From an uncultured Halobacteriales archaeon (lineage in GTDB: Archaea > Halobacteriota > Halobacteria > Halobacteriales > Hikarchaeaceae), in NCBI GenBank assembly GCA_964597855.1, contig CAZQZO010000001.1, positions 267,702 through 331,701 of the forward strand: 64,000 nucleotides of DNA. Direction: 5' to 3'. Made by a program: the position numbers and the translations under genes. This document shows, piece by piece, positions 49,964-53,196 of this stretch (within the stretch, counting starts at the first letter, position 1; the number at the start of each line of letters is the position of its first letter). The notes under the pieces are model-generated. The model had not been told where the DNA came from, did no database searches, and saw nothing but the letters and a program-made list of their open reading frames with translations.

Positions 49964-50902
49964 CTATTCTTTTCCAGCCCATTTTGCTATTAAAAGCGTT
50001 CCTTCAAACAACCCCACCATTGTAAGAGTTACAATCAAAGGGGCCATCCCCGTTGGATCTGGGCTGAAAATAAAAGAAAGTCCCAAGAACCCTCCCCAAA
50101 ATAAAATTCTTCTTTTTACTAGCCATTTCCTAGTCACAATTCTCATCAACAAAGCAAGCATCACAAAAATGGGTATTTGGAATACAATCGCTAGGTATCC
50201 CATTAATACCAATATGAGATTAAACGTCTGCCCTAACCCAAACCCAATTGTTGCTATACTTTCAGAATAGTATAAAAAATATGTAAAAATGACGGGCAAG
50301 ATGATGAAATATGCAAAACTAACACCAACTAGTGCAAGCACCAAACTCGTTGGTATGGCGGCCAAATAATACCGGCGCTCATGCTCGTAGAGCCCGGGGC
50401 GCATGAATACATACGTTTGCCATACTCCAATGGGCAATGCAATTATTAGCCCAACTAAGCTGGCCACTTTAAATTCTGTGAATTTAAGTTCCAATATCCC
50501 GTACAACCTAGGTCTCGTAACATCACTTACCGGAAGTATTGAGTCCCATAAAAAGTTAATTGCCACATCTGCAAAAGGAAATGTAATGACACTGACCAAT
50601 CCTGCAACTCCTACTACTACTGCCAATCTTTTTATTAATTCTCCTATGTGATCTACTATCGGCAACTCCCTGTCATCTTTCGGTCCTTTTTTGCCACCGA
50701 TGAAATCTCCCCCTTCACTATCTTTTTGCAATAGTTCCTGAACCGTTTCTTTAATTTTCCCCGCGAGGTTTTCACCAATTCCTGAAACTGAAGCAAGCTC
50801 ACTCTTTTCTGCAGCTTGAAGAGCCTCAATAGTACTAAAACCAGCCTCATCAAGTGCTTGGGCTTTAATTTTCCCAACACCTGGTATATCTATCAATTTC
50901 AT
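49964..50902 (-). CDS. tatC: Twin-arginine translocase subunit TatC with an N-terminal (HhH)2 domain
   Basis: The C-terminal ~240 aa is a 6-TM TatC (FSPDPTGM signature). Residues 1-55 carry two helix-hairpin-helix motifs (LIDIPGVGKIKAQAL, LASVSGIGENLAGKI) resembling the RadA/Rad51 N-terminal domain. Confidence 0.85.
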   Translation of the reverse strand: MKLIDIPGVGKIKAQALDEAGFSTIEALQAAEKSELASVSGIGENLAGKIKETVQELLQKDSEGGDFIGGKKGPKDDRELPIVDHIGELIKRLAVVVGVAGLVSVITFPFADVAINFLWDSILPVSDVTRPRLYGILELKFTEFKVASLVGLIIALPIGVWQTYVFMRPGLYEHERRYYLAAIPTSLVLALVGVSFAYFIILPVIFTYFLYYSESIATIGFGLGQTFNLILVLMGYLAIVFQIPIFVMLALLMRIVTRKWLVKRRILFWGGFLGLSFIFSPDPTGMAPLIVTLTMVGLFEGTLLIAKWAGKE

Positions 50903-51018
50903 TTCATTAAAGGAACCTTTCCATCCACATGACCCTTAAGCGAGGTAACTGGTATAGATCTTTTTGTAGAGATGCATACCGATAAGGTTCTCCTCAAGAA
51001 AGAAAATATCACAATAAG

Positions 51019-53196
51019 ATGAGTGTCAGTGACTTCTTAAATCCTGATGCACGCAAAACATTCGATAAAGGCAGAAAAACAGCATCAGACATGCTGACAG
51101 CTGCAAGATCGAAACTACGCCATGTGTTTATCGTTTTCGTTGTTTTCCTATTGGCTACTATCTATGCCATGCGTTTATGGATCTGGCCCAGTTTAAAACA
51201 AGATTTACTCTCCCGTGGTGCAGATGTTATTGTACTAACACCTTTTGATGTTATTTTGCTGCAAGCTAAAATTGGTATCCTTGTCGGTATCCTCTTCTGT
51301 ATACCCTTTTTCTTGTACTACTCCAGGGACGCACTCAAAGAGCGCGGGATCTATCCTAAAACGGACATACCTATCTGGAAATTAGTTGGGATGGGGTTAC
51401 TTTCTACATTCCTCTTTTTTGGAGGCATTGCATATTCTTATAGAATTTTTTTCCCATTAATGTTTGATTTTTTGGCTTATAATGCAGTCAGTGCAGGCCT
51501 CTCTCCAACATATTCCATTGTAGAATGGACACAATTTATTTTCGTTCTTGGTTTCGCGTTTGGTCTCGCAGCACAGCTACCCCTGGTTATGACAACATTA
51601 TCCTACACCGAACTTATTCCATATGAAACGTTCAGAGATAAGTGGAAATACGCAGTTTTAGGAATGTTTGCATTCGGAGCTATATTTTCGCCACCCGATC
51701 CATTTACTCAAATTTTATGGGCCGCACCTCTAGTTGTTTTATATGGATTTAGTTTGTACTTATCCAAAATAGCCGTCTCGTTTCGCAGAGGAAAAGACAG
51801 TATTGATATAACCAAAACCGCACGTAAAAAATCTACAATCATTATAGCCACCATAGCGATAATTAGTGCTGTTAGTTACTGGTTATCTACCATTGGGGTA
51901 ACTCAAATTCTCACTTTGGTAGGCTCACTCCAAAATTATGTTACTAGCACACCTTCCAACCTTCTCAATCAATCTTGGCAAGTAACGATAGTCCCCCCTT
52001 TTATATTCGCGCTATTAATCGGGCTTGTCTCTGGACTCTTGGTACTACTATATCACTCTATACCTGAATTAGAGCCTAGAGTTACCTTCGGTGACCCTAC
52101 TGCAATAGATCTAGAATCTCTCGATGTTGAAGGTCTCCAAATGGCCCCTCCTGAAGCTCTCCTTCAGTTAACAGAAGAAAAAGGACTCGCTATGGCATCC
52201 CGCGCAATCGAAGCAGGGGATGCGGAAAGGGCCCAAGCCATCTTACGAGCAGTCGACTCTGCCAATCAAATGCGTGCTGTAGATATGTTATACCATTTTG
52301 ATGAAGAAGAATGGAACCGAATGCAAAAAGAAAGATTAGAACAAAAAAGAAAAAGAAAGTTCGAAGGATCTTTCAAACGAGCAACAGCTGGGATTGTAAG
52401 TTCGGTCTCAGAAAAAGAAGTTGGGGAAGAAGACATAGGTGGATATGCCTACGACATCGCATTCTTATTTGACACCTTACGATCTAAAACTTTCAGAATT
52501 TTTGGAGTATTCATAACAGTCTTGGTAAGTGTTTTTACATTCCTCTATACGGGGGGAATCGGACAATTGAAAAACGATTTTCTTCGACGTCTCCCCGATA
52601 TAGTCCGCCCCGAAGAAGTTAGTATAATAACTCTCCACCCAGTAGAAGCACTCATTTTTGAAATTAAAATTGCGACCCTATTGGGCATTGTTGCAACATT
52701 ACCTTGCATCCTCTATTATCTGTGGCCCGCCCTCAAGAAACGCGGTATAATCAAAGGCGATCGAAACGTAGCATTCAGTTGGGCCGGGGCCATATCCCTT
52801 GGGCTTCTTTTTGGCAGTGCATTGGGATATCTTTATGTTGCCCCTGCTTTCGTTTCATATTTTGTATATGATGGAATCCGAGCAAATATGCTTGTAACTT
52901 ACCGGGTATCTAATTTCTTTTGGCTCATTTTCTTTTGCACCATCGGAATTGGACTTTGGATAGATATTATTGTAACAATGATAATGTTTCACAGAGCAAG
53001 AATAGTTTCTTACACCACCATGTACAAAAACTGGCGTGCAGTGACCGTTGGAACTCTAGTCCTTTCTGCCGTATTCACTCCCCCTAGTGTCATAACAATG
53101 GTTCTAGTCACATTTCCTATTATGATTGCATATGGCATTGGGCTATCTATCTTATCCATCTATGCTAAAATAAAACCGTTTGATATTCCCTCCTAA
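51019..53196 (+). CDS. tatC: Duplicated (tandem-fused) TatC, haloarchaeal TatCt-like
   Basis: 725 aa. The first TatC half has FSPPDPFTQ and the second half has FTPPSVITM. A ~200-aa linker separates them and contains extra TM segments and a charged cytoplasmic stretch. Confidence 0.85.
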   Translation: MSVSDFLNPDARKTFDKGRKTASDMLTAARSKLRHVFIVFVVFLLATIYAMRLWIWPSLKQDLLSRGADVIVLTPFDVILLQAKIGILVGILFCIPFFLYYSRDALKERGIYPKTDIPIWKLVGMGLLSTFLFFGGIAYSYRIFFPLMFDFLAYNAVSAGLSPTYSIVEWTQFIFVLGFAFGLAAQLPLVMTTLSYTELIPYETFRDKWKYAVLGMFAFGAIFSPPDPFTQILWAAPLVVLYGFSLYLSKIAVSFRRGKDSIDITKTARKKSTIIIATIAIISAVSYWLSTIGVTQILTLVGSLQNYVTSTPSNLLNQSWQVTIVPPFIFALLIGLVSGLLVLLYHSIPELEPRVTFGDPTAIDLESLDVEGLQMAPPEALLQLTEEKGLAMASRAIEAGDAERAQAILRAVDSANQMRAVDMLYHFDEEEWNRMQKERLEQKRKRKFEGSFKRATAGIVSSVSEKEVGEEDIGGYAYDIAFLFDTLRSKTFRIFGVFITVLVSVFTFLYTGGIGQLKNDFLRRLPDIVRPEEVSIITLHPVEALIFEIKIATLLGIVATLPCILYYLWPALKKRGIIKGDRNVAFSWAGAISLGLLFGSALGYLYVAPAFVSYFVYDGIRANMLVTYRVSNFFWLIFFCTIGIGLWIDIIVTMIMFHRARIVSYTTMYKNWRAVTVGTLVLSAVFTPPSVITMVLVTFPIMIAYGIGLSILSIYAKIKPFDIPS

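Follow-up and report, generated by a model that had tools for sequence, protein, structure and literature searches.

TatC is the substrate receptor of the twin-arginine translocation (Tat) pathway, a route thought to act only after folding, and to our knowledge the protein has no link to nucleic acids. N-terminally extended TatC proteins with six transmembrane (TM) helices form a named class, TatCn (Ghosh 2019, PMC6525301; repeated in PMC13673990), and haloarchaeal TatCn/TatCo proteins are paired with TatCt, a subunit of 14 TM helices (Dilks 2005, as cited in PMC13673990; Ghosh 2019). The class is defined by topology alone: its extensions are described only as "long cytoplasmic loops", no domain is assigned to them, and the word "hairpin" occurs 0 times in PMC6525301. 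Here, we analysed a 64-kb window (the whole stretch of DNA under study) from the metagenome-assembled genome (MAG) of a Marine Group IV (Hikarchaeia) archaeon (1.21 Mb, ~40% G+C, 76% completeness), in which a tatC gene encodes a pair of helix-hairpin-helix motifs, (HhH)2 or HhH2, in front of the membrane core. The TatCn class itself is already known, and what is new here is its (HhH)2-bearing form. No paper linking TatC with HhH turned up in our literature searches, which also returned nothing relevant on the HhH of L32e/eL32 or other haloarchaeal ribosomal proteins; Tat goes without mention in two papers on Hikarchaeia.

A TatCn-type receptor with an (HhH)2 domain

The gene is a continuous 312-aa open reading frame (ORF) in the ORF list of the window (49964-50902, minus strand). 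Three parts follow one another in it: the (HhH)2 cassette (residues 1-58, 50729..50902), a flexible Gly/Lys/Asp-rich linker (residues 59-83, 50654..50728) and a canonical 6-TM TatC core (residues 84-312 plus the stop codon, 49964..50653). An earlier note on this stretch had placed two HhH motifs in the first ~55 residues, had given them the coordinates 50729-50902 (exactly residues 1-58), and had described such a linker and a normal 6-TM TatC in the same frame; all this was borne out by the analyses that follow.

The Pfam family HHH_5 (PF14520) matched residues 2-55 with an E-value of 1e-11 (45.5 bits, cut-off 27). HHH_2 (32.8 bits, cut-off 27) and HHH (24.3 bits, cut-off 24) were also found on the 312-aa protein, so that the HhH profiles and TatC are all above their Pfam cut-offs. 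IPGVG (residues 6-10) forms the first hairpin and VSGIG (residues 39-43) the second. AlphaFold2 (AF2) modelled residues 1-62, with a 37-row alignment, as a confident bundle (predicted local distance difference test, pLDDT, 84.4) of four helices of at least 4 residues plus a short N-terminal turn, which is the (HhH)2 pattern. Among PDB structures, the top fold matches given by Foldseek were the N-terminal domains of RadA/RAD51 (1xu4, TM-score 0.85, root-mean-square deviation 1.1 Å over 57 residues), followed by the HhH2 domains of XPF, UvrC, and Hjm, with FANCM-FAAP24 also on the list.

The linker has pLDDT <50 at residues 61-79 of the full-length AF2 model and ends in a conserved juxtamembrane motif, GPKDDRELP. 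Its length differs between orthologues, always in frame (with a 5-aa deletion in L030). The alignment and the known TatC topology show that the HhH2 domain hangs into the cytoplasm beside the signal-binding site, on this disordered linker of ~25 residues; the full-length model has a predicted TM-score of 0.33, and no inference on HhH2-core docking is taken from it.

Residues 84-292 matched the Pfam TatC family (PF00902; E-value 8.9e-40, 137.2 bits, cut-off 25.1) over profile positions 1-206 of 208, and the TM helices of the core were taken from the AF2 model. The stricter equivalog cut-offs of NCBIfam were missed (TIGR00945, 120.4 vs 132.7; TIGR01912, 80.6 vs 192.6). The signal-binding residues are kept: in the alignment to 9dzz_A, F166 corresponds to E. 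coli F94 and E175 to E103, and E88 was matched to E. coli E15 by reading the same alignment. All three (E88, F166, and E175) are invariant among 63 aligned sequences. Residue 80 aligns with residue 7 of E. coli TatC, which leaves 79 extra N-terminal residues here; the claim that a cytoplasmic HhH2 is not part of the textbook TatC architecture is correct for the bacterial protein.

On the opposite strand, head-to-head with tatCn and 116 bp away from it, lies the gene of the partner subunit TatCt (51019..53196, plus strand), a fused double TatC of 725 aa and 14 TM helices, matched by the Pfam TatC family in two stretches and by TIGR01912 with 280 bits. Both signal-binding sites of TatCt look degenerate: in the alignment, its C-terminal half has L at the position of F166 and D at that of E175, and the N-terminal half was read by eye. 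A TatA-family partner is present elsewhere in the genome (PF02416, G000:C11:4066-4248, 52.6 bits). The protein thus combines the traits of the TatCn class, namely a 6-TM TatC, a long N-terminal cytoplasmic region, and a co-occurring 14-TM TatCt. As the gene sits head-to-head with a 14-TM TatCt, we assign its product as the TatCn-type receptor subunit of a haloarchaeal-style Tat translocase (TatA, TatCn, and 14-TM TatCt).

The locus resembles the haloarchaeal TatCn/TatCt system in the 6-TM TatC with its long N-terminal cytoplasmic region, in the divergent adjacency to a fused double TatC, and in the signal-binding residues, which the 6-TM subunit retains and TatCt has in degenerate form; the core is 60-75% identical. 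It differs in the extension, which is short, not acidic, and made of a folded (HhH)2 and a linker, and in the host, which lives in the non-hypersaline ocean.

The same 312-aa architecture, starting with MKLIDIPG, was found in seven of the eight genomes of the genus, one of them having it split across two contig ends. The orthologues are 84-97% identical and come from Marine Group IV archaeon HikBin1/4/5 and from ocean "Halobacteriales" MAGs, including an ALOHA MAG, which is the ground for placing the host in Marine Group IV. The frame is unbroken in seven independent assemblies from different studies (the query and six other Marine Group IV assemblies). Among the orthologues, the ratio of nonsynonymous to synonymous substitution rates (dN/dS) was 0.10-0.33 for the HhH2 codons, with dS up to ~1, and 0.00-0.04 for the membrane core. 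These values indicate that the HhH2 domain is translated and under purifying selection, with a constraint weaker than in the core.

Metatranscriptome libraries of three studies yielded contigs over the HhH2 codons. One RNA-library contig (~95% identity) spans 50123-50881 and joins the core to the HhH2, and two 100%-identical ones from one sample (X16 and X18) both end at 50928, 26 nt upstream of the ATG. Taken by themselves, these contigs are weak evidence of expression and of the 5' end. Positions 49964-50122 are without such cover, which is a weak hint at most, as is the shared end at 50928. Furthermore, RNA-library contig X17, from a related strain (~95% identity), has one extra T at 50686, within the codons of the linker; a frameshift variant, an assembly error, or an effect of aligning a length-variable linker could each account for it. 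On all this evidence, we hold the architecture and expression of the HhH2-bearing TatCn to be almost certain.

One statement of the earlier note, that no alternative start exists, did not stand. An in-frame TTG at codon 80 (50663-50665) lies exactly at the canonical TatC start in six of seven orthologues, HikBin5 having TTA there. Nothing in the analysed data supports the use of this TTG as a start, though a minor short isoform from it is conceivable. In haloarchaeal TatCn/TatCo proteins, the canonical TatC start is mostly occupied by Met (consensus D.EMPL.DH), and some database entries begin there; in this group, long and short isoforms could conceivably be made from one gene.

Kinship, origin, and distribution of the cassette

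The HHH_5 carriers of the same genome are L32e (with two N-terminal copies), S3 and RNA polymerase A'' (with C-terminal ones), RadA, Hef, and UvrC. Compared with the cassettes of its own genome, that of TatCn shares 68% identity with the first HhH2 of L32e, 63% with the C-terminal one of S3, 44% with that of RpoA'', and 35% with the N-terminal domain of RadA. The best PDB sequence matches were haloarchaeal eL32 proteins (E-values 1e-10 to 4e-10), with Rad51/RadA at 1e-6 to 1e-3, and the top NCBIfam model, ahead of RadA, was PRK12766 (haloarchaeal L32e; E-value 9.5e-13, model positions 11-69 of 238), matched far below its cut-off (48.4 bits vs 239). The kinship to L32e is at the cassette level only, as Pfam did not find a Ribosomal_L32e domain in TatCn. 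A RadA/Rad51 recombinase identity was rejected: the protein has no RecA-type ATPase domain, and the RadA profile was matched at positions 2-58 with 33.7 bits against a cut-off of 361. The description of the domain as RadA/Rad51-like in the earlier note therefore stands for the fold and fails for the sequence. Since the identity is 68% and 63% to L32e and S3 and only 35% to its own RadA, the domain reads as a lineage-specific, promiscuous, linker-tethered HhH2 cassette and not as a RadA fragment.

Two known architectures come closest. The HhH extension of haloarchaeal eL32 (H. marismortui 1JJ2 chain X and 1S72 chain Y; 9L94 chain Q) is likewise a terminal module on a linker and is the closest sequence relative; it belongs to a ribosomal and not to a membrane protein, and L32e has two or three tandem cassettes. 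The N-terminal domain of RadA/Rad51 (M. voltae RadA 1XU4/1T4G; human RAD51 1B22) is also an N-terminal (HhH)2 on a linker and is the best structural match, with 35% identity; unlike RadA/Rad51, TatCn is without a RecA-type ATPase core.

In the tree of TatC cores, Marine Group IV forms two sister clades, one HhH2-bearing (97/95) and one HhH-less (G006 and cluster P0007; 99/97). The HhH-less gene of G006 starts with MEKNSAKEDEL, has a 40-residue charged tail, and rejoins the HhH form at GP.DDRELPIVDH; the rest of the locus is unchanged in this sister clade. In the HhH-bearing gene, a 5-codon upstream ORF (uORF; MERFL-stop, 50907..50924, minus strand) precedes the main ATG: it is out of frame, has its ATG at -22, ends 4 nt before the main ATG, and recurs in five of six HhH-bearing orthologues (MERFL, MEKFL, MDKFL, MGKSL). 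In the DNA alignment with the HhH-less orthologue, the ATG of the uORF coincides with the start codon of that orthologue. Most probably, the uORF is a vestige of the old start codon, just behind which the cassette would have been inserted.

A tree of 48 cassettes places the Marine Group IV TatC cassette in a clade with the Marine Group IV cassettes of L32e-a, S3, and A'' (Shimodaira-Hasegawa-like approximate likelihood ratio test, SH-aLRT, 99), which also holds one A'' cassette from a representative protein whose source is unknown (P0129). The second L32e cassette clusters with its haloarchaeal orthologues, across lineages. As for the TatC cassettes of haloarchaea, they are spread over two or three other groups of the tree, one of which includes an S4e cassette. 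The approximately unbiased (AU) test rejected the placement of all TatCn cassettes in a single clade (p 0.005). Taken together, the core tree, the uORF, the cassette tree, and the AU test suggest, as the most economical reading, that a ribosomal-protein cassette was the source of a gain in one Marine Group IV subclade and that haloarchaea gained theirs separately; TatC has probably acquired the cassette more than once. An origin of the cassette within the lineage is, in our judgement, likely. What speaks against this origin is that the cassette tree has 57 columns, that the group submitted to the AU test was named after the tree was seen, and that the clustering of cassettes by lineage could come in part from composition or gene conversion.

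The prevalence figures cover the 120 best protein clusters and 30 related genomes. Among the 120 nearest TatC clusters, the combination of PF14520 and PF00902 is precomputed in 25, six from Marine Group IV and 19 of Halobacteriales type, the latter being metagenome proteins of 319-498 aa with the cassette embedded in acidic tails. The architecture is not unique, as the TatCn class is named and these 25 clusters are already annotated with both families. Among the 22 genera of the related genomes searched, the fusion was found in two only (this one and G014).

At the same position of TatC, other relatives have a DUF5763-like Cys module or acidic disorder alone. The former occurs in sister genera of the same GTDB family, whose TatC extension holds the module KTCAG..G.PCGR.V...YCYLHEDQ and not HhH2 (L044, G016:C5:360029-360121; L045, G012:C54:7361-7453; proteins P0019 and P0053); the module is below the Pfam cut-off and is the sole match of that family in G016 and G012. 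Judged by these sequence comparisons, the cassette is accessory and dispensable over evolutionary time.

The cassette is also present on unrelated haloarchaeal proteins. The cassettes of haloarchaeal HhH2-TatC are 70-76% identical to those of S4e and are also found on L32e and on short-chain dehydrogenase/reductase (SDR) oxidoreductases. On the latter (P0286-P0292, one from Haloglomus litoreum), the cassette is 54-74% identical to that of haloarchaeal TatCn.

Possible roles of the cassette

The G-h-G hairpins and the Lys of HhH motifs hold phosphate backbones. In the alignment of the cassettes, G8, G10, A14, L17, A20, G21, A31, G41, A47, I50, and K51 are fixed or almost fixed; all hosts keep the hairpin glycines (G8, G10, and G41) and K51, and position 13 (K13 here) is usually basic in the printed alignment. 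Since the cassette retains these hairpins and Lys residues, it may serve the Tat receptor as a handle, either one that binds nucleic acids weakly and without sequence preference or a generic one for docking. The receptor would thereby stay close to RNA, DNA, or ribosomes, and the handle would have no part in translocation itself. We propose this nucleic-acid or docking tether function tentatively, as our preferred reading. For the explanation as a whole, in which a HhH2-bearing TatCn, a lineage cassette, and a tether role are weighed together, we put the chances at about even.

Several points weigh against it. All the cassettes are net acidic (about -3 here, -5 to -11 in haloarchaea, and -8 in the N-terminal domain of its own RadA), unlike what is expected of a strong nucleic-acid binder; as every cassette is acidic, that of RadA included, net charge is no guide to nucleic-acid binding. 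The dN/dS of the HhH2 is about ten times that of the core, one kind of carrier (SDR) is a metabolic enzyme, and the N-terminus of TatC accepts widely differing modules, or does without one, as fits a module of little specific function. Moreover, the RNA-library contigs neither prove transcription nor define the 5' end.

Some of these points lead to a first alternative, in which the cassette is a neutral or physical appendage: a small, very soluble, fast-folding module that the lineage adds to protein termini in the way it uses acidic tails, with no specific ligand on TatC, serving at most as a bulky hydrated head or spacer. HhH2, the DUF5763-like Cys module, or acidic tails occupy one position according to lineage, the sister Marine Group IV clade is without the cassette in an otherwise unchanged locus, the hosts are unrelated and include the SDR enzyme, the cassettes are net acidic, and the constraint is relaxed relative to the core. 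Nevertheless, with dN/dS at 0.1-0.3 over dS up to ~1, the fold is under genuine purifying selection, the hairpin glycines and K51 show little or no variation in any host, position 13 is usually basic, and every sampled genome of the HhH-bearing subclade has kept the cassette. We consider a neutral appendage, the main alternative, rather unlikely, though hardly less likely than the tether; if the module proves to be one, it would be an evolutionary curiosity.

A second alternative is a protein-docking handle, which would bind another HhH2 cassette (that of the ribosome or of RNA polymerase), a folding or proofreading chaperone of Tat substrates, or the cytoplasmic loop of TatCt, and would regulate or localise the receptor. 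The (HhH)2 domains of proteins of the XPF/ERCC1/Hef type form pairs, and XPF and FANCM-FAAP24 are among the fold matches of the cassette. The tether emerges beside the signal-binding site, and a common partner would suit a cassette shared by parts of the ribosome, the polymerase, and the translocon. However, comparison with the HhH-less genome gave no signal of co-variation between the TatCt cytoplasmic loop and the presence of HhH2, the loop being without extra divergence in that genome (68%, vs 84% and 73% for the TatC halves), and a Tat-specific partner is hard to square with carriers such as L32e, S3, S4e, RpoA'', and SDR. This alternative appears improbable to us.

Even less probable is a bolder extension of the tether reading, in which the cassettes on RpoA'', on the small-subunit proteins S3 and S4e (mRNA entry side), on L32e, and on the Tat receptor would be one shared tethering system. 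If this were true, transcription, translation, and Tat export would be held physically close through mRNA/DNA or a common partner, in Halobacteria as well as in Marine Group IV; it would be a "transertion"-like coupling for a pathway that is post-translational in textbooks, reinvented at least two times in archaeal TatC.

Last, an artefact, with the HhH2 being a separate small gene, a contig mis-join, or an untranslated leader and TatC starting near codon 80, would find a basis in the TTG there in six of seven orthologues, in the Met that many haloarchaeal TatC have at that point (where some database entries start), and in the 1-nt insertion at 50686 of one related-strain RNA-library contig, and it is already largely refuted and can hardly be right, given the uninterrupted frame of seven independent assemblies, the purifying selection on the HhH2 codons in this very frame, the in-frame length variation of the linker, the TTA of HikBin5, and the RNA-library contig that bridges HhH2 and core.

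A conserved and selected domain of nucleic-acid type, tethered by the signal-binding site, offers a concrete handle on the role of the enigmatic TatCn extensions. Furthermore, the domain is one copy of a mobile cassette, which ribosomal proteins, RNA polymerase, and an oxidoreductase also carry, and this points to a general use of tethered HhH2 in the lineage.

The locus also bears on the salt question. A 2026 Tat review suggests that the asymmetric TatCt/TatCo system is perhaps an adaptation to molar salt. This open-ocean archaeon has a complete 14-TM TatCt and a mildly acidic proteome (D+E 13.3% and K+R 10.2% in the ORFs of the window). The presence of TatCt in such a host argues that the asymmetric TatCn/TatCt system is older than hypersaline life or independent of it, which touches on that suggestion.

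The tatCn/tatCt intergenic region and other carriers of the cassette

The 116-bp divergent intergenic region between tatCn and tatCt (50903..51018) is strongly conserved across orthologues in the DNA alignment. A TATA-like TCTATA at ~50952-50957 (minus strand), ~25-29 nt upstream of 50928, is a putative promoter element.

The domain was also used as query in two protein searches. A HMMER search of the representative library gave 358 matches in proteins of 49-3360 aa, among which proteins with multiple HhH repeats rank highest; two of the matches were typed by Pfam, P0122 as L32e and P0129 as RpoA''. A word-indexed search with residues 1-62 returned the four closest orthologues alone, too few words being shared. 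A short contig of the genome (G000:C26:3-1322, L009) codes for a NusA-like protein that is long and, as in bacteria, has HhH repeats at its C-terminus; the contig may be a contaminant in the MAG.

The C-terminal cassette of RNA polymerase A'' (L007:1498-1674; G000:C11:19543-20991) lies behind a Lys/Pro/Ser-rich linker and is 44-51% identical to the TatC, L32e, and S3 cassettes; in the representative protein P0129, A'' has two such cassettes, both N-terminal. In the ribosomal-protein operon, the first cassette of L32e (L001:1501-1677; G000:C7:23354-24280) and the C-terminal cassette of S3 (L002:1501-1671; C7:18470-19426) are ~4 kb apart. The L32e-a and S3 cassettes are 89% identical here and essentially identical in G006 (L040), yet they differ between genomes, which looks like concerted evolution by gene conversion between the two. 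In some haloarchaea, S4e carries a C-terminal HhH2 cassette (L035:1158-1319 in G014; P0277-P0287), and in other genomes (G019 and G024) S3 or S4e has a plain acidic tail instead, so that cassettes and acidic tails seem interchangeable at the termini of ribosomal proteins.

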